DNA from: Moraxella nasicaprae
GTDB taxonomy: Bacteria; Pseudomonadota; Gammaproteobacteria; Pseudomonadales; Moraxellaceae
Assembly: GCF_025643275.1 (NCBI RefSeq)
Contig: NZ_CP089977.1
Coordinates: 30,001-62,000, forward strand
DNA: 32,000 nt
Direction: 5' to 3'
This document shows, piece by piece, positions 2,609 through 24,185 of this stretch; within the stretch, counting starts at the first letter, position 1, and every line of letters begins with the position of its first letter. The position numbers and the translations under genes are program-made. The notes beneath the pieces are model-generated. The model worked only from the letters and a program-made list of their open reading frames with translations, did not search any database and had not been told where the DNA came from.

Positions 2609-2612
2609 AAAT

Positions 2613-3979: not shown

Positions 3980-5074
3980 TTATCCGTATTGGCGTTCAAA
4001 CTCTTTCATGAACGACACCAACTGCTCAACTTGTGCCAGTGTGACCGCATTGTAGATACTGGCACGCATACCGCCCACCACACGATGACCTTTTAGGTTT
4101 AACAATCCTGCCTCTTTGGATTTTTCCAAAAAGACTTTGTCAAGCTCGCTGTTTGCCAGTGTAAAAGGCACATTCATGATAGAGCGATATTGTGGATTGA
4201 CTTGATTATGATAAAAATCACTGTTGTCAATGGCTTGATATAAGGCATTGGCTTTGGCTTGATTGATTTTGGCAATCGCCTCTACACCGCCTTGCTCAAT
4301 GAGCCATTCAAACACCAGTCCCGATAGATACCATGCATAAGTCGATGGCGTGTTTAGCATTGAGTCGTTTTCAAATTGGTTTTTGTAATTCATGACCGCA
4401 GGACACCATGCACTGGCTTGTTCCATCAAATCTTTACGCACAATAACCAGCGTCAAACCAGCAGGTCCGATATTTTTTTGAGCCCCAGCATAAATCAGAC
4501 CAAATTGATTGACATCAATGGGTGCAGACAAGATGCACGATGACATATCTGCCACAATCGGTGCATTTACCTTTGGCACATCAAACATTTGCACCCCGTG
4601 AATGGTCTCATTAGGGCAATAGTGAAAATAGCTGGCATTATCCGACAGTTGCCATTGCTCCATCGATGGAATGTCGGTAAACCCAGACGCATCGCCTGAG
4701 GCAACCAAATTTACCTTGCCCAAACCCAAAGTTTCATAGCGTTTGGCTTCTTTGTAGGCTTTTTGAGACCAAGTGCCTGTTTCTAGATAGTCCGCCACGC
4801 CACCATTCATCAGATTCAGCGGAATGGCAGAAAACTGCAATGCCGCTCCACCTTGCAAAAATAGCACCGCATAATCATCGCTGATGTTCATCAGCTTTCT
4901 AAGATTACTTTCTGCCTGTTGGGCAAGCTCCATATAGTCTGCACTGCGATGGCTAATCTCCATCACCGACACGCCCAGATTATGCCAATCTAACATCTCT
5001 GCTTGTGCTTTTTGCAATACAGCGGTCGGCATTGTTGCAGGGCCTGCACAAAAATTTGCCAAACGATTTGTCAT
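3980..5074 (-). CDS. serC: 3-phosphoserine/phosphohydroxythreonine aminotransferase
   Basis: FCAGPATMPTAVLQKAQAEM...SHRS...GAQKNIGPAGLT (PLP lysine context) matches SerC. Of three tandem ATGs I favour the third (5074) for its spacing from RBS agagga. The track start at 5098 is TTG. Confidence 0.9.
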   Translation of the reverse strand: MTNRLANFCAGPATMPTAVLQKAQAEMLDWHNLGVSVMEISHRSADYMELAQQAESNLRKLMNISDDYAVLFLQGGAALQFSAIPLNLMNGGVADYLETGTWSQKAYKEAKRYETLGLGKVNLVASGDASGFTDIPSMEQWQLSDNASYFHYCPNETIHGVQMFDVPKVNAPIVADMSSCILSAPIDVNQFGLIYAGAQKNIGPAGLTLVIVRKDLMEQASAWCPAVMNYKNQFENDSMLNTPSTYAWYLSGLVFEWLIEQGGVEAIAKINQAKANALYQAIDNSDFYHNQVNPQYRSIMNVPFTLANSELDKVFLEKSKEAGLLNLKGHRVVGGMRASIYNAVTLAQVEQLVSFMKEFERQYG

Positions 5075-5133
5075 CATCATTCCTCTTTGATTGTCCAAAA
5101 AATTATCAATAGTTTATCATAAATTTGACACAG

Positions 5134-5850
5134 TCATTGGTGTAAAAATTGCCAAAATTGTTTTTTTTGTTCGCCAGCCGCTGACATATCTGCCAAACTA
5201 AATTGACTTAGCCATGCCGTATCTGTTTCGATGGCGTCATGCATTTGGGTTAGGGTCAATACTTGTATGCTGCTATCGCCTTTGGTCAGCCCAAAAACAA
5301 AACCATCAAGACTACGCTGAGCAAGTAATGGCTGTCCATAAATCTCATCAAATGGATAGGATAACTGACGAATTTGGTGGCGATATTGGTGCTGCTTGGC
5401 GTTTTTTTCTAGGGCTTGCATGAGTGATGACCAGACAGATTTGGTTGCCATTTCTAGCTGATGTTCATCAACCAACAATAGCCAGTTTCGATACAATACC
5501 GCAGACAACTGATATGAGATACTTGGCTGATTTTCTTGTAATGCACTCGATGATGAGTCGGTTTTTGTGTCTTGACTGGCAAGGTCGGATATCTTATCAG
5601 TATTGAGTGCAATCGGCTGATGAATGATGTCTGGCGTGGTCAAAGTCTCACTCTGCAAAACCGTGATGGGCGTGTCATTGGGTGTTGCCAGATGTGATGA
5701 CAGCTGTGAGATGGGCAAAGCATGCACCGTGGCGAAATCCACCGCCTGCACCTGTGTTGAACGCCCTGCCCATAACTGCATACCAATCTGGGAAAAGATA
5801 TAGCGATTTTGCACCAATGATGGTGTTTGCTGAGTCATCATCTTGACCAT
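5134..5850 (-). CDS. hypothetical protein, possible long-form DNA polymerase III psi subunit (HolD-like)
   Basis: The N-terminus (NRYIFSQIGMQLWAGR) resembles E. coli HolD RDWQLQQLGITQWSLRR. The C-terminus (LADMSAAGEQKKQFWQFL) resembles LTDLRANPTARAALWQQI. The middle is longer and Ser/Thr/Gln-rich. The start is uncertain (ATGs at 5850, 5841 and 5838). Confidence 0.6.
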   Translation of the reverse strand: MVKMMTQQTPSLVQNRYIFSQIGMQLWAGRSTQVQAVDFATVHALPISQLSSHLATPNDTPITVLQSETLTTPDIIHQPIALNTDKISDLASQDTKTDSSSSALQENQPSISYQLSAVLYRNWLLLVDEHQLEMATKSVWSSLMQALEKNAKQHQYRHQIRQLSYPFDEIYGQPLLAQRSLDGFVFGLTKGDSSIQVLTLTQMHDAIETDTAWLSQFSLADMSAAGEQKKQFWQFLHQ

Positions 5851-5980
5851 AACCAAAGAATTTTGCTCATTTTATCAACAAAACCAATAAAAGTATAATC
5901 GTAAAGCACGATAAATCATCTTTTTTACCCCAAAATGACCGCCATTTATCATTTTTTGTACAAAAAATCGAAAATCTGAC

Positions 5981-6009
5981 TTGCAATTTAGCACCAAGGT
6001 CGCTAATAT
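5981..6009 (+). promoter_or_regulatory. putative sigma70 promoter (TTGCAA-17 bp-TAATAT)
   Basis: ttgcaa at 5981-5986 and taatat at 6004-6009 with 17-bp spacing, about 265 nt upstream of rlpA. Sequence match only. Confidence 0.3.
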
Positions 6010-6274
6010 AGGGTTAATGAATTGGCGATATTTTGATAAATATTACAAAATATTACTAAAATTCATTAAAATTGCCTAGATTTTTTAGTTCATCTATGGC
6101 ATCATAAATCATCGTTTGAAATATCTTGATACAAACGAGATTCCACCCCTGACAAAGTGCCTTTGGCATTATGTTGGGATACATTCACTAATAACACTTG
6201 ATATTGATACTTATCGATTGGTATTGATGTGCAGAATCGGTGTTTTTGACATCAGACGGCACTAAGAGGTAACC

Positions 6275-6859
6275 ATGAACACAGTTAGCAAATCGCTGAT
6301 GCGTTTGGCAGGCATCACGCTTGGCGTGAGTTTGGGTCTGTCAGCACAAGCTAACAGCACGGCAAATACTGCCAACATCGATAGAGTGCTAAATCAACTC
6401 ACTGCTCAGCACAACAATACATCTAGCTTGGTGCGTAATGCTCGCCAATCGGCTTCTTTGTCTTTAAGCAGTCCTTTGGTTCAACAAACCGCCAGAAAAG
6501 AAAAAGCCACTAATGACAATAGCCCTGTTTTGGAAAAATTGACCGCTGTTGCATCTAGCACCGTCAATCGTTTCAAACAAACAGGCATTGCATCTTGGTA
6601 TGGTCGTCAATTTCACGGTCGCAAAACCGCCAATGGCGAAACTTTTGACATGAACGCAATGACCGCTGCACATAGCACACTCCCAATGAACTGCTATGTC
6701 AGAGTGACAAATCATGACAATGGCAAGTCTGTCATCGTCAAAATCAATGACCGACCAAAAACCGACAAGGTGCTTGATTTATCTTATGGTGCAGCTCGTG
6801 CCATTGGTATTTCTGGTAATCTGGGTAATGTTACCATCGAACGAGTCGATGGACCATAA
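6275..6859 (+). CDS. rlpA: septal ring lytic transglycosylase RlpA family protein (DPBB domain)
   Basis: Signal peptide followed by GIASWYGRQFHGRKTANGETFDMNAMTAAHSTLPMNCYVRVTNHDNGKSVIVKINDR, the RlpA double-psi beta-barrel signature. RBS agagg lies upstream. Confidence 0.85.
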   Translation: MNTVSKSLMRLAGITLGVSLGLSAQANSTANTANIDRVLNQLTAQHNNTSSLVRNARQSASLSLSSPLVQQTARKEKATNDNSPVLEKLTAVASSTVNRFKQTGIASWYGRQFHGRKTANGETFDMNAMTAAHSTLPMNCYVRVTNHDNGKSVIVKINDRPKTDKVLDLSYGAARAIGISGNLGNVTIERVDGP

Positions 6860-6880
6860 ACCCCAAAATAAGGCCAAAAA

Positions 6881-6916
6881 AAGACCGAAAAAATGGATTG
6901 TTTTTCGGTCTTTTTT
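6881..6916. terminator. bidirectional rho-independent terminator between rlpA and the ABC ATPase gene
   Basis: aaagaccgaaaaa / tttttcggtcttt stem flanked by an A-run and a T-run. Confidence 0.8.
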
Positions 6917-6933
6917 ATTGGGCGATATGCACC

Positions 6934-7689
6934 CTACTGAGCGATGGCATCTAAAATTTGCCGTTTTAGTTGTAGCGATGCTTGACTGTGCAAAAAATCC
7001 GCCTGCTTTGGTATGATAAAAGGTGTGGATAATGTGGCAGGGAATCCAGACAACACATAGATATAATCAGCCAAATACATCGCCTCATCAATATCATGCG
7101 TGATGATAAGACAAGTTAATCCTAATGACTGCTGAAAACGCCGAAACCAATCATACATTTGTGTTTTGGTGACATAATCCAATGCCGAGAAAGGCTCGTC
7201 CAGCAACATCAGATGGTCATTGCTAAGATAAGTGCGTAATAAAGCCGCCCGCTGCTTTTGTCCGCCCGACAATGTTTGGGGATATTTTGATAGCAAGCCG
7301 TCAAGCCCAAATTCTGCCTGATGACGATGGATTTGGGCATGGATTTGGGTTTTTGACACACCTTGTAGCACCAATGGTAAGGCAATGTTGTCATACACGC
7401 TCTTAAATGGCAGTAGCAAGTCTTTTTGGAGCATATATCCCACATGACCTGCCTGCCCCGTTCTGTCTTGTCCATCTATCAGCACTTTGCCTGCTTGCGG
7501 TGTAATCAGACCAGAAGCGATGTTAAACAAAGTTGTTTTGCCAACACCGCTTGCACCAACAATCGCCACCACATCAGCCGTCTTGACGGATAAGTTTAGT
7601 TTATCAAATAAAGGTTTTTGTTCGCCTGATGCGATGGTAAAACTATGGCAAATGCCATCAAGTCGCAATTTATCAAAGGTATGGGTCAT
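6934..7689 (-). CDS. ABC transporter ATP-binding protein (NitT/TauT-type, ThiZ-like)
   Basis: Walker A GASGVGKTT, signature LSGGQKQR, Walker B LMLLDEPFSALD. Confidence 0.9.
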   Translation of the reverse strand: MTHTFDKLRLDGICHSFTIASGEQKPLFDKLNLSVKTADVVAIVGASGVGKTTLFNIASGLITPQAGKVLIDGQDRTGQAGHVGYMLQKDLLLPFKSVYDNIALPLVLQGVSKTQIHAQIHRHQAEFGLDGLLSKYPQTLSGGQKQRAALLRTYLSNDHLMLLDEPFSALDYVTKTQMYDWFRRFQQSLGLTCLIITHDIDEAMYLADYIYVLSGFPATLSTPFIIPKQADFLHSQASLQLKRQILDAIAQ

Positions 7690-8675
7690 TGTGGCAAATA
7701 GTCATTGCTGACGCCTGCTTGTGGAGCAAAAGGCTTATCAATCAGCTTATGTTGATACACCCAATCAAAAAAAGAATCCCAGCGAGCATAGTCAAATCTA
7801 CCCCATTGACCATTTTTATCCAGATAGGTTGGCGAAATATAGGCTTGGCTGGCCATCGCCAATTCTGGATTGATTTCTGGGGCGTGTTTCATCAAAATCT
7901 TCGCACTTTCTTCTGGATTTTTGGCGGCATACAGATAACCTGCTTCGATGGCAGCCAAGGCTTTTTTGTAGCGTTCTGGATTGTCTGCCAATGCCTTACT
8001 GTTGGCAATCAAAACTGGTGAATAATAGTCAAAGACAGGATTGGTATCTTTTAAATAAAAGAAATTGGTATCGACACCCTTGATGCCAGCATGAATGCCG
8101 TCCCAGCTATAATATGCCAAAATATAGTCAAACTGATTCATACGCAATGCTGTTGTTGCATCGGTGCTTTCACCAGGAATTTTGACCAAATTATCGCCAA
8201 CCACACTAGCAACCGTAGCATCGTCCACAGGGTCTTCCCAAGTTGAATAGCGTTTGCCGTTCAAATCAGCTGGTGAAGTTGCTCCCAATGATTTTAGTGA
8301 TAACAAACCTGCACTGTTGCTTTGTGTGATGGCGGCAACTGCCGTGATTGGCTCGCCTTTGTTTAAGCGTTTGACCATGTTGGGCTGAAAATACACTCCA
8401 AAATCTGCCCGACCACTTGCCACCAATGTGGAGGTGCTGTCTTCGCTGGGCTGTACGATTTTGGCATCAAACCCTTGTTTAGCAAAATAACCCTGATCCA
8501 ACGCCACATACAAGCCTGTATGATTGGTGTTTGGCACCCAATCTAGGGCGATGATTAACTCTTGGAGTTGTTCTGGGTTTGCCACTTGCTTGTCTGCTTT
8601 GTCTTGGCAAGCACCCAAGCCCAATGCTGCCAGCAACGCTGTACCCATCATCAACGATTTTGGAAAAAATTTCAT
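7686..8675 (-). CDS. ABC transporter substrate-binding lipoprotein, NMT1/THI5-like (ThiY-like pyrimidine-precursor binding protein)
   Basis: Lipobox LGLGAC, then ALDWVPNTNHTGLYVALDQGYFAKQGFD, typical of NMT1/THI5-fold binding proteins. The ATG at 8675 has RBS aaggag 7 nt upstream. Confidence 0.8.
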   Translation of the reverse strand: MKFFPKSLMMGTALLAALGLGACQDKADKQVANPEQLQELIIALDWVPNTNHTGLYVALDQGYFAKQGFDAKIVQPSEDSTSTLVASGRADFGVYFQPNMVKRLNKGEPITAVAAITQSNSAGLLSLKSLGATSPADLNGKRYSTWEDPVDDATVASVVGDNLVKIPGESTDATTALRMNQFDYILAYYSWDGIHAGIKGVDTNFFYLKDTNPVFDYYSPVLIANSKALADNPERYKKALAAIEAGYLYAAKNPEESAKILMKHAPEINPELAMASQAYISPTYLDKNGQWGRFDYARWDSFFDWVYQHKLIDKPFAPQAGVSNDYLPQ

Positions 8676-8678
8676 CAA

Positions 8679-9440
8679 TCACTCCTTGTTTTTGTAGTGC
8701 ATGGCACGATTTTCAAGCCATTTCACTAATGCAATCAACAGCAAAGTTAAAAAACTGATTAAAAAAATGACCGCAAACATATTATCCAGTTCGTAGGATT
8801 TTCGCACTCGGGTCATATACACACCAAGCCCATGATAGCCACCAAGCCACTCTGCCACTACCGCAGAAATGAGTGCGTAGGATAATGCCACTTTTAATCC
8901 TGTAAAAAAATATCCCATTGCAGAGGGTATTTTTAGGTGTATGTAAGTCTGATAAGTGGTTGCTTTCATGGATTTAAATAGATTGAGCTGTTCGTTTTCA
9001 ACCGAACGATAACCGTCCAATAACGCAATGGTCATCGGAAAAAATACCGATAAAACCACCAGCACCACTTTGGGCAAAATCCCATAACCCAACCAAATGA
9101 CCAACAAAGGTGCGATGGCAATCGTGGGAATGGTCTGATTAAGCAATAAAATCGGATAAACTTTTTGGCGAAATCCTTTGGATAAATCCATCAAAATGGA
9201 CAAAATAAAGCTCAATAATAGCCCTATTGCAGTACCAAGAAACGCTGTGGCAAGCGTGTACTGAGCATGATGAGCCAGCAACAAGGCATCATCAAATAGT
9301 GCTTGCAAGATTTGGCTAGGACTGGGTAATAAATAATCAGGCAACACCCCTATCATCACCACGCCCTGCCATACCGCCAGCAATAAGATGACCAAGCTAT
9401 ATTGCCCAAATAATGCACCCAAGCGAACAAAGGCTTTCAT
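8679..9440 (-). CDS. ABC transporter permease (ThiX-like)
   Basis: 253-aa multi-TM protein of the BPD-transport type, first gene of the permease-SBP-ATPase operon. Confidence 0.85.
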   Translation of the reverse strand: MKAFVRLGALFGQYSLVILLLAVWQGVVMIGVLPDYLLPSPSQILQALFDDALLLAHHAQYTLATAFLGTAIGLLLSFILSILMDLSKGFRQKVYPILLLNQTIPTIAIAPLLVIWLGYGILPKVVLVVLSVFFPMTIALLDGYRSVENEQLNLFKSMKATTYQTYIHLKIPSAMGYFFTGLKVALSYALISAVVAEWLGGYHGLGVYMTRVRKSYELDNMFAVIFLISFLTLLLIALVKWLENRAMHYKNKE

Positions 9441-9469
9441 GGCTATTTTGGGTAAAATTTAATAGAAAT

Positions 9470-9478
9470 ATTATAACA
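9470..9478 (-). promoter_or_regulatory. putative extended -10 promoter (TGtTATAAT) for the ABC importer operon
   Basis: The reverse complement of attataaca reads tgttataat, about 30 nt upstream of the permease ATG and directly downstream of the yghU terminator. Confidence 0.45.
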
Positions 9479-9488
9479 AAAGATAAAC

Positions 9489-9525
9489 AAAAAGCCAAAA
9501 CAAAGATGAATCTGCTTGGCTTTTT
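9489..9525 (-). terminator. rho-independent terminator after the GST gene
   Basis: aaaaagccaa ... ttggcttttt hairpin 7 nt downstream of the stop at 9532. Confidence 0.7.
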
Positions 9526-9531
9526 AGTGAT

Positions 9532-10338
9532 TTATTCAATCGCTTGTAGTGCCAACTGCTCGGCTGACTGCACCGCAGGACGCTTGGCAATGGTTTTTGC
9601 CCAGCGAATCAGGTGTGTGTATTCATGAGCGGATAAAAATTCATAGGCATTATAATGCTCGCTCACATATAATTGACCCAAACACAGTCTGCCATACCAA
9701 GGATAAATCGCCATATCTGCCACAGTATAATCATCGCCAACCATATATTGATGGGTTGCCAAATGTTGATTAAGTACATCAAGTTGGCGTTTGGCTTCCA
9801 TGGCATAGCGGTTGATTGGGTATTCTTGGGCAAAAGGAGCATAGGCATAAAAATGCCCAAAGCCACCACCTAAAAATGGTGCAGACCCCATTTGCCACAT
9901 CAACCAAGATAAAGTCTGAGCATTTTTTATGGTGTCTGTTGGTAAAAATTCGCCATATTTTTGGGCAAGATACAACAAAATCGCCCCGCTTTCAAATAAT
10001 TTAACGGGGGTGTCGCCAGAATAATCCACCAAAGCAGGGATTTTTGAGTTTGGGTTAATATCCACAAAATCCGAGCCAAATTGCTGACCTGACATGATGT
10101 CAATCTTATAAGCATCGTAGCCAGAGATTTTGCCTAATTTTTTAATTTCTTCTAAAATAATATTAACTTTAATGCCGTTGGGAGTGTTGAGGCTGTACAA
10201 TTGATAATCAAATTCGCCTTTGGGTAAGGATTGTATGTGCGTTGCTCCTGAGGTTGGGCGATTTGTACCGCCAAATTTACCACCATTTTGGTTTTTGACG
10301 GTCTCATAATCCCAGATTTTAGGTACTGTATAGCTCAT
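9532..10338 (-). CDS. yghU: glutathione S-transferase, YghU (Nu-class) family
   Basis: YTVPKIWDYETVKNQNGGKFGGTNRPTSGATH...LYSLNTPNGIKV...PNSKIPAL matches YghU-type GSTs. ATG at 10338 with GGAG 7 nt upstream. The track start at 10350 is TTG. Confidence 0.8.
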   Translation of the reverse strand: MSYTVPKIWDYETVKNQNGGKFGGTNRPTSGATHIQSLPKGEFDYQLYSLNTPNGIKVNIILEEIKKLGKISGYDAYKIDIMSGQQFGSDFVDINPNSKIPALVDYSGDTPVKLFESGAILLYLAQKYGEFLPTDTIKNAQTLSWLMWQMGSAPFLGGGFGHFYAYAPFAQEYPINRYAMEAKRQLDVLNQHLATHQYMVGDDYTVADMAIYPWYGRLCLGQLYVSEHYNAYEFLSAHEYTHLIRWAKTIAKRPAVQSAEQLALQAIE

Positions 10339-10405
10339 TGATTGCTCCAAAAAATATTTTGGTTAAAGTAGCACATCATCATTTAAGTTACAAGTCTTGA
10401 CATAC

Positions 10406-10438
10406 AAAAAAATCCTGCTTTATTTGACAGGATTTTTT
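10406..10438 (-). terminator. rho-independent terminator after exbD
   Basis: aaaaaatcctg ... caggatttttt hairpin with a T-run on the minus strand, 10 nt after the exbD stop. Confidence 0.8.
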
Positions 10439-10447
10439 TGTATTGCA

Positions 10448-10849
10448 TCATTCGCTAACAAAGGCGATTTTATTTAGACCTACGCCACTGGCTGTGGCAA
10501 GCACTTGGGCAACCATGTCATATTTGCCCTCTTTGTCTGCTCGTAGATTGATTTGTGGATTTTTGCCAGCCAATACCTGATCGCCAAATCGTTTATTTAA
10601 TTCATCTAAACTGATGGCCTCTTTGTCCCAATAAATTTGACTTTGGGCATCGATGCTGATTTGTACCACTTCTGGCGGTGTATCATTGATGCTGGCAGAA
10701 GTTTTTGGCAAATCCAGTGGCACGCTTGGATTAAGCACCGTCGCTGTTACCAAAAAGATAATCATCAATACCAGCATAATATCAATCAATGGAATAAGAT
10801 TCATCTCATTCATGCCTTGATTGTCGCCATCACCTAATTCAAATGCCAT
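10448..10849 (-). CDS. exbD: biopolymer transport protein ExbD/TolR
   Basis: MAFELGDGDNQGMNEMNLIPLIDIMLVLMIIFLV is the ExbD/TolR TM signature. The internal ATG at 10849 is preferred, because the longer track ORF overlaps exbB. Confidence 0.85.
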   Translation of the reverse strand: MAFELGDGDNQGMNEMNLIPLIDIMLVLMIIFLVTATVLNPSVPLDLPKTSASINDTPPEVVQISIDAQSQIYWDKEAISLDELNKRFGDQVLAGKNPQINLRADKEGKYDMVAQVLATASGVGLNKIAFVSE

Positions 10850-14478: not shown

Positions 14479-15129
14479 TTAAGCCGTTAATTCCTTAAAC
14501 ACCCACGGTCTCTCCGCACGGGCTTTTTCTTCAAAGGCTTTAATATCATCACTATTTTGTAAAGTCAAACCAATATCATCTAAACCATTTAATAGGCAAT
14601 GCTTACGAAATGCGTCCACTTCAAAATGATATTCTTTGCCAGATGGCGAAATCACTTTTTGATTTTGTAAATCAACGGTTAATTGATAGCCGACATTGTC
14701 AAAACATTCTTTAAAAAGCTCATCAACTTCACTCTCTGAAAGAATAACAGGGAGCATTCCGTTTTTAAAACAGTTATTATAAAAAATATCGGCAAAACTT
14801 GGGGCAATCACAGTGCGAAAGCCATATTCATTTAATGCCCAAGGAGCGTGTTCACGGCTAGAACCACAGCCAAAATTAGTACGAGCAAGGAGAATCGTTG
14901 CCCCTTGATAGCGGTCTTGATTTAACACAAAATCAGGGTTTTTTGGGCGTTTTGAAATGTCTTGCCCCAAATAGCCTTCGTCCAAATAACGCAGTTCATC
15001 AAACAAATTATCGCCAAAGCCTGTGCGTTTAATAGATTTTAAAAACTGCTTAGGGATAATCAAATCGGTATCCACATTGGCACGGTCTAGGGGGGCAACA
15101 ATGCCGATTTCGGTGGTGTATTGTTTCAT
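14479..15129 (-). CDS. leuD: 3-isopropylmalate dehydratase small subunit
   Basis: [31 protein letters not shown]...[15 protein letters not shown] is canonical LeuD. ATG at 15129. The track start at 15168 is an upstream extension overlapping the PIN gene. Confidence 0.95.
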
Positions 15130-15155
15130 AAAAGTACCTTTTAAGTTTAAATCAC

Positions 15156-15545
15156 TTACCAAACACAATTTTTATAATGCTCGGTTAATTTTTCATCTTT
15201 GCTAATTAAAACGCCATTATCTAGCATTGCGTGAGCAATAATCAAACGGTCAAATGCATCACGAGTAAAATCACAAGTTAATGCCATATTAACAACATCA
15301 AGCCAGTTCTTATGGCAAATCTTTAAATCAATTTCTTCTTGCAAAGCATTGATAATTTGTTCTGCTGTATCAGTTATCCTTTTCTTTTCATATAGATATT
15401 GTAATTCGAGCTTGACCATAGGAGAAATAAAAAGATTATTGTTTTCTAAAATATCTAAGGCATTTTTGGAAAACTTTTTTAATTGTCCTGTATATAGCCA
15501 AACGACCGTGTGAGTATCCAGATAAATATCAGCTTGAGAAATCAA
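15156..15545 (-). CDS. vapC: PIN-domain toxin (VapC family)
   Basis: [11 protein letters not shown] (first acidic residue), [12 protein letters not shown], and C-terminal [25 protein letters not shown], the DPFDR.iiAqA...T.D signature. Only a TTG start is available. It overlaps the upstream small ORF by 17 nt. Confidence 0.8.
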
Positions 15546-15753
15546 GATTTAACTCCTTTTCCCAGCTGATATTAACCAAGTCATCAGAATTGCCAATCAC
15601 CACATTTGGGCGAGATTTTAATCGTGATAACTTAGGGTATTTTGAATAGTCATCGGCAATTGATTGATTGATTTTTTCAACCAATGCCATTTTATCAGCA
15701 TTGTCCAAATGCTGTATCATTTGATAATATTGTTCCACCACTCCAATAGGCAT
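15529..15753 (-). CDS. putative antitoxin partner of the PIN toxin
   Basis: Small ORF immediately upstream of and overlapping the PIN gene. The ATG at 15753 is preceded by a perfect GGAGG 6 nt upstream (the track start at 15765 is less well placed). Family not recognised. Confidence 0.6.
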   Translation of the reverse strand: MPIGVVEQYYQMIQHLDNADKMALVEKINQSIADDYSKYPKLSRLKSRPNVVIGNSDDLVNISWEKELNLDFSS

Positions 15754-15766
15754 TATTACCTCCATT

Positions 15767-16300
15767 TTACCAGTTATAATAAGCCGTCAAACTTGCCGTT
15801 GCCAATACCTTACCATTTAAATTAAATCCCAAAACCGCAGGGCTAATGGTATTTGGTAAGTCCAGCATTTCATTTAGGGCGTATAGGGTAAAAATATAGC
15901 GGTGTGGTTTATCGCCTTTGGGCGGAAAGGCTCCAATAAAGCCGTCAAGGGAAGCGTCATTTTTTAATTCCAAAATGCCATTACCAAACTCATTAGATTT
16001 GCCCTTTGGCAAGCTTGTCCAATCTGCTGGAATATTAAAGACATTCCAATGCCAAAAGCCTGAGCCTGTTGGAGCGTCTGGGTCGTACATTGTCAGCACA
16101 AAACTTTTGGTGTCGCTTGGGGCGTTTTTCCATTGTAGCTCTGGACTGATATTATTGCCCGTATAGCCCCAAATATTGGCGACATAGTCATTGGATAGGG
16201 TGTCACCCTCGTGAATATCAGCACAAAACAATACCATATCGCCTTGGCTTTGAGCAGGGTTACGCACATCAAGATAAGTATTTAAAGATAAATCGTTCAT
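15767..16300 (-). CDS. YbhB/YbcL family Raf-kinase-inhibitor-like (PEBP) protein
   Basis: LTMYDPDAPTGSGFWHWNVFNIPA and GDKPHRYIFTLYAL are PEBP signatures. ATG at 16300 with RBS aagga. The track start at 16396 is TTG and extends into decayed sequence. Confidence 0.8.
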   Translation of the reverse strand: MNDLSLNTYLDVRNPAQSQGDMVLFCADIHEGDTLSNDYVANIWGYTGNNISPELQWKNAPSDTKSFVLTMYDPDAPTGSGFWHWNVFNIPADWTSLPKGKSNEFGNGILELKNDASLDGFIGAFPPKGDKPHRYIFTLYALNEMLDLPNTISPAVLGFNLNGKVLATASLTAYYNW

Positions 16301-16630
16301 ATCTATTTCCTTAATATTAAAAGTTTGATTTAAGCAGTTTAATACATAGGTTTGGCATTCATCAAGCGATTTAAAATAAATCCGCTCGCCAATCAATCCA
16401 AGCCCATCAAAGCGATAACTTTCATCAATAAAAAATGTTTCGCTGGCTATCCAATCTTTTTGACTGGCAAAAGTAGGATTGATATCACAAGTATCTAATC
16501 GCCAAACGCTTGCAAAATAGCCTTTTTATGAATGCTTAAAAATCTCAATTTTAAATAACCACATTTCGCCATTATCGGTTTCTATGGGGTCAGTAATCAA
16601 AGTTTTAATCAGCTCACAAAAGCCAATCAA
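16301..16630 (-). pseudogene. possible decayed ORF (no usable start, one in-frame stop)
   Basis: My hand translation of the minus strand gives LIGFCELIKTLITDPIETDNGEMWLFKIEIFKHS*KGYFASVWRLDTCDINPTFASQKDWIASETFFIDESYRFDGLGLIGERIYFKSLDECQTYVLNCLNQTF. It looks protein-like but is broken by TAA (rc of 16526-16528). It is in frame with the PEBP track ORF extension. Confidence 0.35.
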
Positions 16631-16945
16631 TTATTTGTACTCCGTACATTCAATGTCTTTTTCTTCACAAAACATTGCATTAAATTTACCCTGACATTGT
16701 TTTTGCACATCTAATTTGGCTTTACCACGGCTGACATTTTCACTGGTAAATGTTGTGGTAAAGGCTTTTAATTTGCATTGATGAATGGGAGCGGTTGGGT
16801 CAGCTTTATTCACTGTGCGATTATCAATAATGACCGCAGGGGCAGGATTGATGACCACAGGGACGGCTTTGCCAGTGCTGTCCACAGGGGCAACACAAGC
16901 ACTTAATAGAGCAAACATTGGTAAGGTTAAAAGTAGTCTTTGCAT
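16631..16945 (-). CDS. small Cys-rich lipoprotein, unknown function
   Basis: Signal peptide with lipobox (MQRLLLTLPMFALLSAC). The mature part has four further Cys (HQC, KQC, MFC, IEC). ATG start. Confidence 0.65.
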   Translation of the reverse strand: MQRLLLTLPMFALLSACVAPVDSTGKAVPVVINPAPAVIIDNRTVNKADPTAPIHQCKLKAFTTTFTSENVSRGKAKLDVQKQCQGKFNAMFCEEKDIECTEYK

Positions 16946-17073
16946 AAAAGCTCCACAATATCAAACAAAACCATATTATAACTATGGATTTCTACTTAAT
17001 TTTGGATAATACTTATTTTTTTGTAAAGTTATATTGCCTATCATTGAGCTAATTTCATAATCTATGCAAAATA

Positions 17074-17736
17074 TTAAGTATTTAAATCAGGATAATCCCA
17101 ATCTGCATCAACTCTAAACAACCAATCCAATCCTGCACGGCGTTCCATAACGACACTACCATCTAAATTAACTTCCTTGCCATTAATACGAGCGTCCACA
17201 CACGCCCAATGATAACGATAAATTAAATCAGCTTGGTCTAGAATTTCCTCCAAAGAACGCATTTTTACTTTTGACAAAAATTCATCAATATTTGCATTAT
17301 TAGAAACCAGCCCAATAGCAAAATCGCATTCATCGTGAGTCATTGGCTCATTTGGGAATTTTAACTCATCAATTAAACCCAATGCCCATAATAATGCCCA
17401 ACACGCTTCATATTTCCAAGTCATATTAAGCAAATCTTGTTCATCGCCTTTTTGCTCAAAGATAATCAACTCTTTTTCGGTTAAATTATCAATTTGAAAT
17501 TGCTTTAATAGTTTTTGATAAAAAATAACAACTTCTACATCATAGTCATCATTTCTTTGGTCAAAACTTGCTTGAATGCACAGCATGCAGGCGATTAAGC
17601 GTTTTGTGATTTCCAATGGTGTTTTTAATTCAGCTTCGCTTTCATCTTCTATGACTGGCAACCAATCAATATGGGCAATACCTTCATTTTTTAGTTTTTC
17701 AATAGAAAGCTGTTTGCGTTGCCCTGCGGTTTTCAT
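17074..17736 (-). CDS. hypothetical cytoplasmic protein (possibly DUF4272 family, from memory)
   Basis: 220-aa ORF with an ATG start, acidic, with CWALLWALGL and W/D-rich C-terminal motifs. The family assignment is unverified. Confidence 0.6.
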   Translation of the reverse strand: MKTAGQRKQLSIEKLKNEGIAHIDWLPVIEDESEAELKTPLEITKRLIACMLCIQASFDQRNDDYDVEVVIFYQKLLKQFQIDNLTEKELIIFEQKGDEQDLLNMTWKYEACWALLWALGLIDELKFPNEPMTHDECDFAIGLVSNNANIDEFLSKVKMRSLEEILDQADLIYRYHWACVDARINGKEVNLDGSVVMERRAGLDWLFRVDADWDYPDLNT

Positions 17737-17805: not shown

Positions 17806-19227
17806 TTACGCCACCGTCCGCACATCCACAAAATGCCCGTGAATTGCCGCCGCCGCCGCCATTGCAGGACTGACAAGGTGCGTACGACCGCCATTACCTT
17901 GACGACCTTCAAAGTTACGGTTAGACGTACTGGCACAATGTTCACCTGCTTGCAGTTTATCGGCATTCATCGCAAGGCACATAGAACACCCTGGTTCACG
18001 CCATTCAAAACCTGCATCAATAAAGATTTTATCCAAACCTTCACTTTCAGCTTGTTTTTTGACCTGCCCTGAGCCTGCCACCACCATTGCTTGTTTAATG
18101 GTTGGGGCGACTTTTTTGCCCTCAACAATTTTGGCGACTTCTCGCAAATCTTCAATGCGAGAATTGGTACAAGAACCGATAAACACACGGTCAAGCGTAA
18201 TATCAGATAAAGATTGTCCAGCCGTTAACCCCATATATTGATAGGCACGCGTCCAGTCTTTTCGCTGAACATCATCTTTGGCATCATCAAGGGTAGGTAC
18301 ATTGGCAGAGACTGGAATCACCATCTCAGGTGAAGTTCCCCACGAAATTTGTGGTTCAATCTCATCACCATTTAACACGACCACCGCATCAAAATGAGCA
18401 TCATCGTCCGATTTTAAGGTATTCCAATAGGCAACGGCTTTGTCCCAATTTTCGCCAGTTGGGGCATAGGGGCGACCTTTGACATAAGAAATGGTTTTGT
18501 CGTCCACTGCCACAAGTCCAACCCTTGCACCGCCCTCAATCGCCATATTACACACCGTCATACGCCCTTCAATTGACATATCACGGAACACCTGTCCACC
18601 AAATTCAATCGCATAGCCCGTTCCGCCTGCTGTGCCAATTTTGCCAATGATTGCCAAAATGACATCTTTTGGGGTAACACCTTTGCCCAGTTTACCGTCC
18701 ACTCGTACCAGCATATTTTTCATTTTCTTTTGTACAAGGCACTGAGTAGCTAAAACATGCTCAACCTCACTAGTACCAATACCATGTGCCAAACAGCCCA
18801 AAGCACCGTGCGTTGCAGTATGACTGTCGCCACACACCACCGTCATTCCCGGTAAGGTTAAGCCTTGTTCAGGACCAACAACATGAACAATACCCTGACG
18901 GTCATCATTAATACCAAACTGCACCACATTAAAAGTTTTACAGTTATCATCAAGGGTTTTGACTTGAATACGAGAAGTATCATCTTCAATGCCAGAAATC
19001 CCTTGTGAGCGTTCAATGGGTGAAGTTGGCACATTATGGTCTGGGGTGGCAATGTTGGCGGACAAACGCCAAGGCGTACGCCCAGCCAATTGTAAACCTT
19101 CAAAGGCTTGTGGACTGGTTACTTCGTGCAACAATTGACGGTCAATATAAATCAAAGACGAACCATCATCTCGTTGTTTGACCAAATGGTCGTCCCAAAG
19201 TTTGTCATATAAAGTTTTACCTGTCAT
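17806..19227 (-). CDS. leuC: 3-isopropylmalate dehydratase large subunit
   Basis: [16 protein letters not shown]...[14 protein letters not shown]...[11 protein letters not shown]...[13 protein letters not shown] are aconitase-family Fe-S ligand motifs typical of LeuC. Confidence 0.95.
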
Positions 19228-19898: not shown

Positions 19899-20774
19899 AT
19901 GAACACGACCAACTTGGTAACTTTTGTTGCCGTGATGCAAACAGGCAGTATTTCAGGTGCTGCTGAAAAACTCTATATCACCCAACCTGCTGTCAGTAAA
20001 CGCATCAAAAATCTTGAAGATGAATTTGGGGCAACTTTATTTGATACCGTTGGTCGTAGCATCATTCCCACGGCTGCTGCTCATGAGCTTTTGCCTTTTG
20101 TGCGACGATGGCTCGATGATTATGAAACTTGCAAGGCAAATTTACAGCATTCCAAAGAAGTCGCATCAGGGCGATTGGTCATTGGCACCAGCCATCATAT
20201 CGGCTTGCACCATCTTGCTCCTGTATTAAAACGCTTTATCCAAATGCACCCTGCTGTATCATTGGAGGTGCGTTTTGTGGATTCCGAAGAGGCTCATAAG
20301 GCGGTGCTTGAAGGCGAAATTTCATTGGCGTTTTTAACTCTGCCACCAACCTACGACCGAAGATTAAACTATCATACACTATGGTCTGACCCGCTATATT
20401 TTGTGACAGGAACGCTGAGTCCGCTCGCCCAAAAAACCAATGTCAGCTTATTGCAGCTGGCTCATCACCCTGCGATTTTGCCAGCAGCAAATACCTTTAC
20501 CAGTCAGATTACTTTGGCAGAATTTGCCAAGCATAATCTACGCCCATACGCCACGATGAGCACCAATCCTTTGGAATCAATTCGCATGCTAGTATCAGTC
20601 GGCTTGGGCTGGTCGGTCTTGCCAGAAACACTCATCAATCAAGATTTGGTCAAAATCGATATGGCAGAACAAATCGAACTACAACGACATTTGGGCGTGG
20701 TTACCAATCCAAATTTGACCCATTCTGCCAGCATGAAAGCCTTGCTTGCCATTTTATCCATTGATGTGGATTAG
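19899..20774 (+). CDS. LysR family transcriptional regulator
   Basis: N-terminal HTH (LVTFVAVMQTGSISGAAEKLYITQPAVSKRIKNLEDEFGATLF) plus a LysR substrate-binding domain. Confidence 0.9.
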   Translation: MNTTNLVTFVAVMQTGSISGAAEKLYITQPAVSKRIKNLEDEFGATLFDTVGRSIIPTAAAHELLPFVRRWLDDYETCKANLQHSKEVASGRLVIGTSHHIGLHHLAPVLKRFIQMHPAVSLEVRFVDSEEAHKAVLEGEISLAFLTLPPTYDRRLNYHTLWSDPLYFVTGTLSPLAQKTNVSLLQLAHHPAILPAANTFTSQITLAEFAKHNLRPYATMSTNPLESIRMLVSVGLGWSVLPETLINQDLVKIDMAEQIELQRHLGVVTNPNLTHSASMKALLAILSIDVD

Positions 20775-20830
20775 GCAGGCTTGCCATCTTGAACAACAAC
20801 ATTGCCGTTTTCGTCAAGTTTTAATTTCAT
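20771..20830 (-). pseudogene. 19-codon fragment resembling the N-terminus of a phage scaffold (GP20-like) protein
   Basis: The minus strand reads ATG AAA TTA AAA CTT GAC GAA AAC GGC AAT GTT GTT GTT CAA GAT GGC AAG CCT GCC TAA = MKLKLDENGNVVVQDGKPA*. The stop overlaps the LysR stop codon. The similarity to scaffold N-termini is from memory only. Confidence 0.3.
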
Positions 20831-20894
20831 ACGATTTTCTCACTAATGAATGCTTTCCAGCATGGGTTACGCCTTTGTTTTCCAACAATTAGGC

Positions 20895-20926
20895 AATAAA
20901 AAACCCTTTCGAATTCGAAAGGGTTT
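20895..20926 (-). terminator. rho-independent terminator ending the four-gene cassette
   Basis: Perfect 26-bp palindrome aaaccctttcgaattcgaaagggttt (20901-20926), followed on the minus strand by a T-run. It lies 5 nt after the stop of the 137-aa ORF. Confidence 0.85.
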
Positions 20927-20930
20927 GGGG

Positions 20931-21344
20931 TTAAACTTTAAAGTTATCTAATAAATTGGGTATGCTTTCATAATATTTTTTAGCTATTTTAACATCATAA
21001 TCGCTTATATTTTTCTCTAATTCATAATCAGATTGACATCGCCTACTATGAAAGTCTTTAAACTGCAAAGCTAATTTTTGAAAATTTTTATTATTGGTTT
21101 GTTCTGCATAATCCACCAATACTAAATATAGCTGATTATGAACACCTGTCTTAAAAACGCCATCGCTATTTTTACCAATAGCGTACTGTGGCAAATTTTG
21201 CTCAATGTATTGTTTGACAATATGAAAAATCACATAATAACTTCTACTAATAAAAGCTCGTTTATCTGATTCACCAGAGCTACTATCAAGCAACGCAAAT
21301 AAGCCATCAAGGGACAACTTTAAATCCTGAATATCAACAGCCAT
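20931..21344 (-). CDS. HEPN-like four-helix protein
   Basis: The layout matches classical HEPN domains: helix 1 SRSYYVIFHIVKQYIEQ (compare sR.YYA.fHa..a.L), central GVHNQLYLVLVDY, and late FKDFHSRRCQSDYE (compare l...R..aDY). The start ATG overlaps the upstream stop (TAATG). Confidence 0.6.
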   Translation of the reverse strand: MAVDIQDLKLSLDGLFALLDSSSGESDKRAFISRSYYVIFHIVKQYIEQNLPQYAIGKNSDGVFKTGVHNQLYLVLVDYAEQTNNKNFQKLALQFKDFHSRRCQSDYELEKNISDYDVKIAKKYYESIPNLLDNFKV

Positions 21345-22129
21345 TATTGCAATCCCTTTGGCATAAATCTTATGACAATTTTTTGACAGTCATTGAAATC
21401 AAATTTATCCAACATCACATCTAAAAAATCATCATTTAACTGCAAACATTCATCAATGCTAACATTGTTTAGATAAAAGCAATATTCAAGCTGCTTGCCC
21501 ATCTCGGTTTCAATCATAGAAAGCCTATGACTAATATTACCACAATAGCGAGAATATATAAAGCAAAAGACCTCTTGATTGAATTTGATAAATAAGTCTA
21601 AATCAAAGTTTAGTTCATTTAACATTACATGATGATGATTGATACGAGTTACGCTCTTTGCAAATGATTGGCTTAAATCATTGAAATGATGCTCACTACC
21701 TTTAAATTTGGCGAGAATATCATTCAAACCATCTGCATCAAGCAAGCACATTTTATTTGTTTCAATCAAATCAAAAGCAGAAATATCTGCTGGATTATGG
21801 GCAATTAGCCCTTCTACAATCTTTAGGCTTTCGCTAAAATCGCCATTTTTATTTAACAAAAGTGCATAATTATATATTGCGATTTCATCTGATGATTGCG
21901 ATGCATATTTAGCATTTTTGACTGCATTTTTCAAATCGCCTTGCAAAATATTGACAAAGGCTCTTAATAGATAACCCTCTGTAACAATGCCTTGCTTAAT
22001 TAGGCTGTCTGCATCGTTAAGCCATCTTTTATATTTTAAGCCGTATGTAATATCATCCGTCAAGCCTTGATAGCTGGATAAAAATTTGTACGCATCTTGA
22101 GCGGTGGATTGTGGGATTTTTGCAACCAT
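21344..22129 (-). CDS. hypothetical protein, helical-repeat (TPR-like) N-terminal half and unknown C-terminal half
   Basis: 261-aa ORF with an ATG start. The N-terminal half shows repeated amphipathic helix pairs (LLRAFVNILQGDLKNAVKNAKYA / AIYNYALLLNKNGDFSESLKIVEGLIAHNP). The C-terminal half has a His cluster (RINHHHV) and several Cys. No NTase (GS..G/D.D) motif. Confidence 0.6.
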   Translation of the reverse strand: MVAKIPQSTAQDAYKFLSSYQGLTDDITYGLKYKRWLNDADSLIKQGIVTEGYLLRAFVNILQGDLKNAVKNAKYASQSSDEIAIYNYALLLNKNGDFSESLKIVEGLIAHNPADISAFDLIETNKMCLLDADGLNDILAKFKGSEHHFNDLSQSFAKSVTRINHHHVMLNELNFDLDLFIKFNQEVFCFIYSRYCGNISHRLSMIETEMGKQLEYCFYLNNVSIDECLQLNDDFLDVMLDKFDFNDCQKIVIRFMPKGLQ

Positions 22130-22149
22130 TTTCGTTACTCTGCATCATG

Positions 22150-22458
22150 TCAAATAAAGCGTCTATCTGTTTGCATTTTTTGCTTAACTTCATCTTGATA
22201 AGGCTGTAATAAATCATTGTCTGCCCGAAGTAAAACATAAACTTGCATAAAAACATCATCAGGCAAATCACTAAAATCTATCGTATTATGGTCATAATAC
22301 AATGTATGATAGTCATCAAGCCAAAATAATTCTGCCGCCATTGTTTTTTCAAACAAGATTTTCAAACGATTAAACAGCTCCTTACCAGCCTGATTATCAA
22401 GGCTGACAGTTAGGCTTTTGTCAAAATCTTTACTTTGATAAATTATCAGTAAAGTCAT
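22150..22458 (-). CDS. small acidic protein, candidate immunity/antitoxin for the upstream MuF-CT protein
   Basis: 102-aa ORF. Its ATG lies 29 nt inside the 3' end of the 322-aa ORF. D/E-rich. No family recognised. Confidence 0.55.
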
Positions 22459-23398
22459 CGTTTTTATCCGTAATTAACAGAATTTTTTGCTGTTTATGTT
22501 TGGGCAATAATAACACATAATCAATAATTTTTACAAACAACTCTTTATCCATTTTACGCAAATCCATTGGTACAATATCTGATTTTAGCAAATGCTCATC
22601 AATGGTTTTTGTTAGCTCGTCCCAAAAACCGTCAATTTTGGCTTGTTTTTTAGGATTTTTCATTGAAATGCGTTTTAATGCCATATCTGCCATATATTTT
22701 GCTTGAACTTCATCAATAGCAAACATTAAATCCATTGTTTGCCATTCTTTTACAGGCAAATCATTGTCTTTTTTAGCAAAGTCTGGCGGATTGCCTGTTG
22801 GATTTTGTTTATGGTAACGGTCATCATAACGCACCAAGTAAATGCCAAAATACTGCTGTAAAAGGTCGGCAAGTTCTGCCTCGGCAGGTCTTGGCTGCTT
22901 TGGCTTTTCGCCTTGCTTGGTTGGTTCAACTTGCAAGCGTTTGACTTCACTGACTCGTGGTTTTAAGTTGCCAACATTAATTGTTTGATAGCTCGGCTTT
23001 TTAAACACCTCCCCAAACACCACAGGCTCTAACTTTGCCATCTCATTTAGGGTTAGGGGTTCAAAGTTTTTATCCAGTTGTAGGGCTTTAAACTTTGCCT
23101 GTGTGATTTTGCCACTTCTAAACAGTTCAGCTCGTTTTACCCCCAACGCCATATTTTGTGTATGTTCATCTTGTAGGGCTAACCATTCATAGTAGGTCAT
23201 GTTCTCAACCTGACCGTGTTGGCTGGCTCGGTACTTAGGCGGTGTGTAGTCTTTGGTGATGATTTCTACCGTGCTACGACAATTGAAATGATATGGAGGG
23301 TAACTTGCCTTATCAATGGGCATAAATTGACCGTCTAGGTGTCTGATAAGCAGGCTTGTGCAACATTGACAGATGGCATAAACATGGTAAAATACCAA
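22430..23398 (-). CDS. 5'-truncated phage MuF/SPP1-gp7-type head morphogenesis protein fused to an unrecognised C-terminal domain (candidate orphan polymorphic toxin)
   Basis: [25 protein letters not shown] is the terminal signature of the MuF/gp7 domain (ldG..f.....PP.H.NCRC). It is followed by the usual [15 protein letters not shown]...PLTLNEM tail, a K/P/E-rich linker and about 170 aa of unknown fold. The rest of the MuF domain that normally precedes this signature is missing. The track start is TTG. The first ATG is at 23323 (MPIDK...). There is an in-frame stop at 23474-23476. Confidence 0.65.
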
Positions 23399-23561
23399 AA
23401 TCCAAGCAGTTTTGGTGGCATTGCTTGTTTTTGTGCCATGAAAGTCGCTTAAAACATCAATAAAAAAATATGCTCATCTCACATATGTTTTTCATTGAAA
23501 TGGCTTAACCATTAAGAAGCAATCAAAAAAACTTTAATATAATCAAAAGGATATAGACAAA

Positions 23562-24185
23562 ATGATTTTGGTTATCGACAATTATTGTAGTTTTACTTAT
23601 AACATTGTTCAGTATTTTGGAGAACTTAAACAAGACATCACGGTTTGGAGAAACAACGAAACCACCCTTGATGAGATTATCGCTCTCAATCCAAAAGCCA
23701 TTATATTAGGGCCTGGTCCATGTAGCCCAAGCGAGGCTGGTGTCACTTTGGAAATTTTACACAAACTTTCTGACCGCATTCCGATTTTGGGTGTTTGCTT
23801 AGGGCATCAAGCGATTGGGCAAGCATTTGGCGGTGATGTGGTGCGTGCTGGCGAAGTGATGCATGGCAGATTGTCCAAAATGCATCATACTGATGTGGGG
23901 ATTTTTCACGGATTACCACAGGGTTTTGAGGCGACTCGCTATCATTCGCTTGTGATTGATAAAAACACCCTGCCAGACTGCTTGGAAATGACCGCTTGGA
24001 CACAAAATCCTGATGGTAGCATTCAAGAAATCATGGGTGTACGCCACAAAACCTTGATGGTGGAAGGCGTTCAATTCCACCCAGAATCTATTTTAAGCGA
24101 ACATGGCTATCGTCTATTTAATAACTTTTTGGAGCGTGCAGGTCTGCTTGTCTTAGACCATCACAACCTACCGCAAGTTGCCTAA
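23562..24185 (+). CDS. trpG: anthranilate synthase component II / aminodeoxychorismate synthase glutamine amidotransferase
   Basis: [21 protein letters not shown]...GPGPCSP...GVCLGHQ...FHPES are class-I GATase motifs. Confidence 0.9.

Follow-up and report, generated by a model that had tools for sequence, protein, structure and literature searches.

What is a phage-derived toxin gene with a missing 5′ end doing on a bacterial chromosome, with housekeeping genes on both sides? The question is raised by a 32,000-nucleotide stretch of Moraxella nasicaprae DNA (contig NZ_CP089977.1, positions 30,001 to 62,000; below, the window, with positions counted from its first letter), where a minus-strand run of four closely packed open reading frames (ORFs), a 322-codon toxin ORF followed by ORFs of 102, 261 and 137 amino acids (aa), lies between trpG and a gene for a LysR-type regulator (lysR here). 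The original prediction, made from the sequence alone, described an orphan, N-terminally truncated MuF gene with a C-terminal toxin region and an overlapping immunity gene outside any prophage, and this core reading is supported by our analysis. We consider it probable, at roughly 0.75, that the locus is a minimal prophage remnant carrying an orphan MuF toxin/immunity module, which is kept mainly for the immunity and whose cassettes are exchanged by recombination. The toxin and immunity part is made up as follows:

22430–23398, minus strand: 5′-truncated MuF::toxin ORF, 322 codons from TTG 23398
23335–23439, minus strand: upstream ORF of 34 codons from ATG 23439, with its TAG stop 11 nt before ATG 23323
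22996–23385, minus strand: conserved MuF-tail stub, about residues 5–134 (from blastn, alignments and identity per 15 nt)
22889–23002, minus strand: K/P/E-rich N-terminal extension of the toxin cassette (from alignments, with the cassette boundary at 22977–22995)
22475–22888, minus strand: CdiA_C_tRNase (PF18664) toxin domain of the E479 type, residues 171–308 (from Pfam, profile and fold)
22150–22458, minus strand: acidic immunity-like protein of 102 aa with a CdiI-E479-like fold (from model, fold and neighbourhood)

The ORF at 22430–23398, with its MuF tail, K/P/E-rich stretch and C-terminal region, reads exactly as originally quoted. By sequence and model, its C-terminal domain belongs to a known family, the E479-type PD-(D/E)XK tRNases with His replacing Lys. 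The PF18664 profile is matched over positions 1–115 of 116 (E 4.8e-9, 36.9 bits against a cut-off of 26.5), and a profile of 15 homologues matched one sequence in the PDB, chain A of 5J4A ('tRNA nuclease CdiA', E 3.5e-5). Structure prediction of the C-terminal region alone leads to the same protein: the AlphaFold2 model of residues 133–322 (pLDDT 81.8, pTM 0.79) has 5J4A_A as its sole significant PDB match in Foldseek (E 5.8e-6, probability 1.0, TM-score 0.79 on the target), with the next-best match at E 0.017 and TM 0.26. 5J4A_A is the C-terminal toxin (CdiA-CT) of B. pseudomallei E479, a PD-(D/E)XK tRNase cutting tRNA in the T-loop, and its active site consists of Glu204, Asp229, Asp243 and His275, the histidine standing in place of the usual lysine (review PMC9086364). 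In the HMM alignment E173, D206, D223 and H269 of the window protein fall on E204, D229, D243 and H275 and are the predicted catalytic residues; the register is confirmed because the four residues are spaced in the 5J4A sequence (25, 14 and 32) as in the published numbering. All 15 homologues have E173, and conservation is at least 90% at D223 and H269. If E479 is a guide, the toxin would cut tRNA, and would do so in the T-loop. The K/P/E-rich extension in front of the domain belongs to the cassette and not to MuF; in full-length MuF toxins it is conserved along with the tRNase domain.

The original prediction saw no known catalytic motif in this region, a claim contradicted by the PF18664 match, which is above the cut-off over nearly the whole profile, and by the retained E/D/D/H set. 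Its tentative alternative, a PD...D/E.K nuclease, proved well aimed given the match to 5J4A_A and the aligned active site, and the C-terminal region matches a toxin domain and not an assembly domain. Could it represent a new, uncharacterised toxin fold instead? When the toxin ORF was searched on its own against PDB sequences, nothing relevant came up, as would be expected of a new fold, but PF18664 scores above its gathering threshold, profile and fold searches both give 5J4A_A, and the protein already carries the UniRef name 'CdiA C-terminal tRNase domain-containing protein'. These matches rule the candidate out for all practical purposes, and we regard it as scarcely tenable.

The first 29 nt of the second ORF overlap the 3′ end of the toxin ORF, and its product has a pI of 4.57, so the acidic, overlapping 102-aa partner is as first described. 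Model and sequence context indicate that it is the matching immunity protein of the toxin domain. The top Foldseek match of its AlphaFold2 model (pLDDT 86.2) is 5J4A chain B (E 6.5e-3, probability 1.0, TM 0.61/0.60), and the next-best match is at E 2.9. Chain B is the CdiI immunity protein of the same complex to which 5J4A_A belongs, and the toxin/immunity reading is therefore supported by two independent fold matches, of two models to the two chains of a single complex. The relation was detected by fold comparison only: single-sequence and family-profile searches of the PDB missed 5J4A_B, the protein has no Pfam or NCBIfam family, and a search of predicted viral structures with its model returned noise (best E 1.6).

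The genomic neighbourhood points the same way. Homologues of the 102-aa protein, at 48–60% identity, are found directly after toxin domains of the same C-terminal-half subtype in three other contexts: after the full-length MuF toxin P0024 on contig L016, whose C-terminal half is 65% identical to that of the window; after a chromosomal orphan in L008/L009, where the toxin is frameshifted (C-terminal part 85% identical) and the immunity ORF intact; and on the phage contig L002, where the homologue is preceded by the final 32 codons of a displaced toxin. Different small ORFs stand downstream of the MuF toxins that have the other PF18664 subtype (L001, L007, L011 and L019), and they are still distantly related (hhalign probability 91.5% over the C-terminal 42 columns). 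Immunity type thus tracks toxin subtype in the window, L008/L009, L016 and L002, and such co-variation is expected of cognate pairs. The proposal of a cognate immunity partner is upheld by these neighbourhoods and by the 5J4A_B fold, the ORF being conserved next to homologous toxin domains. By the same analogy with E479, the protein would neutralise the toxin by binding over its active site.

The arrangement in L002 is an observation in its own right. At 4725–5430 of this contig a MuF toxin is followed by two small ORFs, and between them lies the 32-codon toxin remnant, which is of the window subtype (69% identity). This remnant is a footprint of toxin-domain replacement within a phage genome.

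Full-length MuF proteins with the same C-terminal domain, 441–520 aa long, do exist in the head modules of phage genomes. These relatives (P0002, P0003, P0015, P0024 and the protein on L019) are encoded between portal and scaffold genes in Moraxella prophages or viral contigs, and the order of the head module is small terminase, large terminase, portal, MuF::CT, small ORF(s), scaffold and major capsid, as seen in the M. bovis prophage L001, the metagenomic phage contig L002 and the IMG/VR genome L019. A search of genome contigs with the toxin ORF returned one locus, a M. catarrhalis MuF gene (L015).

How much of such a gene is left in the window? The full-length relatives have about 200 extra N-terminal residues, and the profiles of the family agree on which part is retained: the match to PF04233 (MuF) is limited to positions 82–111 of 112 (E 0.16), that to TIGR01641 to positions 62–105 of 109 (below cut-off), and that to PHROG 241 ('head morphogenesis') to positions 243–382 of 679. 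As only C-terminal MuF profile positions are matched, the N-terminus is genuinely absent, and the window protein is a truncated MuF derivative, not a full member of the MuF polymorphic toxins. The NCBI annotation of M. nasicaprae has it as a 297-aa protein from ATG 23323 (P0001, 100% identity). A tblastn comparison of five full-length MuF proteins with the window gave alignments in the toxin frame only, and no homology in the upstream second frame. Identity to the phage MuF gene of L002 is 11–13 of 15 nt per block downstream of about 23345 and at chance level upstream, so that strong nucleotide identity begins at about 23345–23350. Since homology is confined to the toxin frame and stops at about 23350–23385, this point is a deletion junction, about 180 bp from the trpG start, and there is no frameshift inside MuF. 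Of the "frameshifted and truncated N-terminus" proposed originally, the truncation therefore stands, as shown by the profile ends, and the frameshift is not borne out by tblastn or by the nucleotide alignment.

The 34-codon ORF at 23335–23439 is present as quoted, and its relation to the toxin frame differs between strains. An A tract within this ORF (23428–23432, minus strand) has five residues (A5) in the window and in the sister contigs L005 and L006, and six (A6) in L003 and L004. Under A5 the upstream ORF stops 11 nt short of ATG 23323. ATG 23439 is in frame with the toxin only under A6, and L003 and L004 accordingly encode a continuous 268-aa protein (P0012). The A5/A6 tract is too short to be labelled phase-variable, yet it alters which protein can be made.

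Independent MuF stubs start within about 40 nt of one point of the gene in three unrelated contexts (L008 at about 2480–3430, L007 at about 730–1640 and the window at about 23350–23385), around GIKV-ATLD-RTS-ICRHLDG. A second, shorter class of stubs (P0033, P0050, P0051 and P0053) starts at a 10-residue motif.

The truncated gene is one end of a larger element, the limits of which are set by the following features:

23562–24185, plus strand: trpG, one flank of the four-ORF block, with trpD and trpC next to it
20935–22995, minus strand: strain-variable cassette with the toxin domain, the immunity gene, the 261-aa ORFan and the HEPN gene (boundaries from blastn against L003–L006)
20901–20926, minus strand: hairpin resembling an intrinsic terminator, with an 11-bp stem and a T run, phage-derived, at the right edge of the variable cassette
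20777–20830, minus strand: first 18 codons (MKLKLDENGNVVVQDGKP) of a phage scaffold gene of the DUF6651 family, the right-hand junction of the prophage remnant
19899–20774, plus strand: gene for the LysR-type regulator (lysR), the other flank of the block

The right flank, 20776–20935, is phage sequence, made of the terminator and the 5′ end of the scaffold gene; the terminator region is 98.8% identical to L005 and 92% identical to the phage contig L002 (blastn), and the scaffold fragment ends at the stop codon of lysR, while in L005 the same gene continues. The locus is thus a minimal prophage remnant, extending from the middle of MuF (about 23350–23385) to scaffold codon 18 (20777). The gap between the MuF::toxin ORF and the divergent trpG is about 120 bp, and the remaining window is housekeeping chromosome (leuCDB, trpGDC, trpS, scpA, ABC transporters and others). 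The gene does not occupy the head-module position of a prophage: portal and terminase neighbours are absent, and the flanks are trpG and lysR. In the window ORFs that we scanned there was neither a CdiA nor a CdiB domain, and it is a MuF tail, not a CdiA filament with VENN, that precedes the toxin domain.

Between the two remnant junctions, the content varies from strain to strain. Four sister contigs share the trpG–stub junction at 96–98% nucleotide identity and have other cassettes inside:

L003 and L004: colicin D domain and a 92-aa ORF
L005: second colicin-D-like domain and a 121-aa ORF
L006 (6337–6945): PBECR3 domain, with no ORF of at least 30 aa downstream

Together with the window this makes four cassette types between shared flanks, and a small downstream ORF is present in three of the four sister contigs. 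The window cassette is 2.06 kb long and has a G+C content of 33%, against 44–45% in the flanks. Its limits are sharp: the stub ends in a 10-residue pre-toxin junction motif, identity breaks right after it, at 22977–22995, and resumes at 20935, right before the terminator hairpin. The stub itself is 96–98% identical at the nucleotide level to those of sister strains bearing other toxin domains and about 80% identical to the phage MuF gene. Colicin D and PBECR3 domains are found after the same junction motif on the full-length MuF proteins P0018 and P0020 as well; in its relatives the stub tail carries colicin D, PBECR3 and other domains, as expected of a variable C-terminal toxin domain of a type that other polymorphic toxin families share. 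Since both remnant junctions are common to strains with unrelated cassettes, the cassettes were exchanged after the prophage had decayed. Exchange was likely by homologous recombination through the MuF tail of about 390 bp and the right flank of about 160 bp.

One of the sister contigs keeps more of the phage. In L005, at 5248–10764, the stub on the trpG side is followed by intact scaffold, capsid, tail-terminator and tail-tube genes. Two readings fit this contig: it is the ancestral prophage with one half deleted, or a phage has entered the stub by a single crossover.

These junctions also bear on another explanation, namely that the locus is inert, decaying prophage debris and that the strains differ through separate decay of different ancestral prophages. 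The truncated MuF gene, the A5 allele, which breaks the frame of the start codon, the failure to find convincing expression signals and the ORFan nature of the 261-aa gene are all what debris would look like. However, identical junctions at 96–98% around unrelated cassettes require replacement after truncation, and all four ORFs in the 2.06 kb are intact. For an estimate of selection we aligned a fragment from another sample (L017, 1049 bp) gap-free to positions 23008–21960, at 96.9% identity. In the toxin domain, with 9 synonymous against 10 non-synonymous changes, dN/dS comes to 0.26; the immunity gene has 5 and 3 such changes and a ratio of 0.13, and codons 1–56 of the 261-aa gene give 0.18. 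The counts behind these ratios are small (8–19 differences). The range of 0.13–0.26 argues against inert debris, and we find this explanation very unlikely.

Is the toxin made, then? We found no convincing promoter or ribosome-binding site before any candidate toxin start, and in the promoter and terminator scan the hairpin at 20901–20926 was the sole useful signal. In other orphan copies (L008, L009 and L007) the toxin is frameshifted or stopped and the immunity ORF is intact. The closest precedent is in E. coli EC93, where the orphan CdiA-CT is not made and the orphan CdiI is made and protective (Poole et al. 2011, PMC3150448). With this precedent, the lack of convincing toxin expression signals leads us to favour retention for immunity, together with a role as a recombination substrate. 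According to this proposal, the toxin domain would cleave tRNA in the T-loop and the 102-aa protein would block the active site, as in E479. The truncated toxin, without most of its MuF domain, would be undeliverable, since it is through this domain that the protein has been proposed to reach the capsid (PMC11699363), and would probably be translated poorly or not at all. The module would persist mainly because the immunity gene protects against MuF::tRNase toxins of phages or lysogens in the community. Cassettes would be replaced by homologous recombination, the donors being phage MuF genes or the DNA of other strains.

The main rival is that the module acts inside the cell as a toxin–antitoxin or abortive-infection system, with the toxin made from ATG 23323 or TTG 23398 and held by the 102-aa protein until phage infection or loss of the locus releases it, and with the HEPN and 261-aa proteins as a second module. 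The toxin ORF is indeed intact with all catalytic residues kept and under the dN/dS of 0.26, the stop of the upstream ORF is near enough to ATG 23323 to permit reinitiation, the A6 allele of L003 and L004 offers a continuous reading frame from ATG 23439, and other cassettes contain pairs resembling toxin–antitoxin systems, such as a SocA_Panacea gene with a 127-aa ORF. Against this, neither a promoter nor a clear ribosome-binding site is seen at the candidate toxin starts, PADLOC models match none of the four proteins (NCBIfam likewise gave no useful match for any of the four cassette ORFs), and it is the toxin which is disrupted and the immunity gene which survives in the other orphan copies. 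The toxin-like domain without a partner in L006 would also be hard to tolerate if the stub were expressed. On balance an intracellular role appears unlikely.

Several points nevertheless weigh against retention for immunity with exchange of cassettes. Promoter-like sites are no more numerous than in shuffled controls, and there are none in the 23440–23561 spacer. With its reading frame intact and a dN/dS below 1, the toxin may be translated, from ATG 23323 after the upstream ORF or from TTG 23398, for a role of its own; the low ratios may also have arisen in phages and not at this site. Retention for immunity cannot explain every allele, because the PBECR3 allele of L006 has no small ORF; the stub is silent there, or a PBECR3 domain can do without an immunity gene beside it. 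The gene immediately upstream is trpG, and the 32 kb of the window offer the stub no full-length MuF gene as a recombination partner. Finally, the fold match of the immunity protein is modest (E 6.5e-3, 12% identity, with no sequence family covering it).

A more far-reaching version of the exchange model can be considered, in which the MuF stub is a maintained chromosomal landing pad: its MuF tail and its terminator/scaffold flank (about 390 and 160 bp) would enable the host to take up toxin-immunity cassettes, and passengers such as the HEPN pair, from infecting MuF-toxin phages by double crossover. This is possible, if on the doubtful side. Were it true, strains would build up their own specific immunity to phage-borne toxins, and phages in turn could reload a toxin from the chromosome or integrate by single crossover, for which L005 may be an example. 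An intercellular action of MuF toxins in Moraxella communities would be implied as well, and this would address the question of what these toxins are for.

How does the locus compare with known systems? The parts all belong to known families (MuF toxins, the PF18664/E479 tRNase and the CdiI-E479-like fold), and the behaviour matches that of the orphans of contact-dependent inhibition (CDI) and Rhs systems; the less familiar feature is a MuF-family orphan alone in the chromosome with allelic exchange of its cassette. With MuF polymorphic toxins it shares the MuF C-terminal region and a variable toxin domain followed by a small ORF (<150 aa), but the window gene lacks about 200 N-terminal residues and sits between trpG and lysR. 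Each window protein matches the corresponding chain of the E479 CdiA-CT/CdiI complex (5J4A) and the Glu/Asp/Asp/His active site is conserved. The two systems differ in that sequence identity is down to 23% (toxin) and 12% (immunity protein), the window domain bears three insertions (8, 3 and about 13 residues), and the carrier is a phage head protein where E479 has a CdiA filament. In the absence of CdiA and CdiB, the module is not a CDI system.

The parallel in behaviour is with the orphan cdiA-CT/cdiI and rhs-CT/rhsI modules (PMC3150448), where a 5′-truncated toxin fragment likewise keeps its pre-toxin sequence and is followed by an immunity gene, the same cassettes occur on full-length genes elsewhere, and they are interchanged between strains at the junction motif. 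The motif is VENN or DPxGL in those systems and the 10-residue MuF motif here, with sharp breaks in both. In contrast to the window module, which is alone in a prophage remnant, CDI and Rhs orphans are normally arrayed downstream of a full-length locus, and their right recombination flank is the next orphan, where the window has the phage terminator and the start of the scaffold gene.

Chromosomal sites where alternative cassettes vary between strains in this manner exist also in Neisseria, which like Moraxella is a naturally competent coloniser of the respiratory tract. Its maf islands contain alternative mafB-CT/mafI cassettes; the toxin MafB, however, is secreted, has an N-terminal domain of its own and lacks phage structural-gene ancestry, unlike the window module.

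In the 2017 survey by Jamet et al. MuF toxins were found mainly in Firmicutes, and the text of that survey nowhere mentions orphans, truncation, recombination or Moraxella (PMC5576092). Apk2 and Bxa are characterised members, and characterisation has covered only (p)ppApp synthetase and ADP-ribosyltransferase members; the biological role and the delivery route of the family are still open (PMC11699363). The locus described here is a Gram-negative MuF example in which the nuclease domain is of a well-understood type and the immunity partner can be recognised by its structure. It indicates that chromosomal sites outside prophages keep MuF modules and swap them among strains, and the exchange pattern is that of toxins used in inter-strain competition. 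It also offers a tractable test of whether immunity genes stranded on the chromosome protect against phage-carried toxins. For annotation, an island of 'hypothetical proteins' is explained, and trpG–lysR becomes a variable site in M. nasicaprae-like genomes.

Two further genes travel in the window cassette behind the immunity gene:

21344–22129, minus strand: ORFan of 261 aa whose N-terminal half gives weak TPR-like matches (Pfam TPR, below cut-off)
20931–21344, minus strand: HEPN-domain protein of 137 aa (from its family profile against the PDB)

The start of the 137-aa gene overlaps the stop of the 261-aa gene (TAATG), an arrangement of translational coupling. The 261-aa protein is 100% identical to the M. 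nasicaprae protein P0062; among 5.8 billion proteins it matched only itself, and no relatives were found in phage records, IMG/VR or JGI metagenomes, although the 5′ end of the gene is present in the L017 fragment at 97% identity. The 137-aa protein alone has no Pfam match, and its close relatives are absent from phage records, IMG/VR and metagenomes; it matches phrog_5176 (E 7e-19). An exhaustive HMMER search of 1.84 billion proteins collected 35 representatives of its family, and the family profile, when compared with the PDB, matches 9XBD ('HEPN domain-containing protein', E 2.2e-11) and 2HSB (E 2.4e-5). PF05168 is matched by 9 of 32 members; R29, Y36, Y37, R102 and Y107 are invariant in the family, and H41, H69 and D106 nearly so. 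The 261-aa/137-aa pair may be a toxin–antitoxin or defence pair, and our searches found no partner family or context for it. In the equivalent position of the orphan cassette of L011–L014 stand the SocA_Panacea gene and the 127-aa ORF, so that in at least two cassettes a second two-gene module follows the immunity gene.

Further MuF stubs were noticed outside this site. Short stubs with other C-terminal domains are found in P0051, P0052 and P0053; the domains on such stubs include a phosphoribosyltransferase-like one (PF00156) and one with HELAGH, which fits the HExxH zinc-peptidase motif. An additional chromosomal orphan lies in L010 (6535–7173), beside a fatty-acid desaturase gene. In L007 a 150-aa ORF with MerR and Resolvase domains (223–675), resembling an IS607-type serine recombinase, is divergent to the MuF stub. 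We considered it as an invertase of a switch similar to the Mu G segment and set this aside, since its domain pair agrees better with an IS607-type serine transposase and the contig is only 2 kb long.

A second strain-variable island is present in the window at 15156–17736, between leuC (17806–19227) and leuD (14479–15168), and encodes:

17074–17736: DUF4272 protein
16631–16945: ORF of 104 aa
15767–16396: PBP-family protein
15156–15545: PIN-domain protein

In L003, leuC is directly followed by an Ntox21 toxin fragment and an Imm41 immunity gene.

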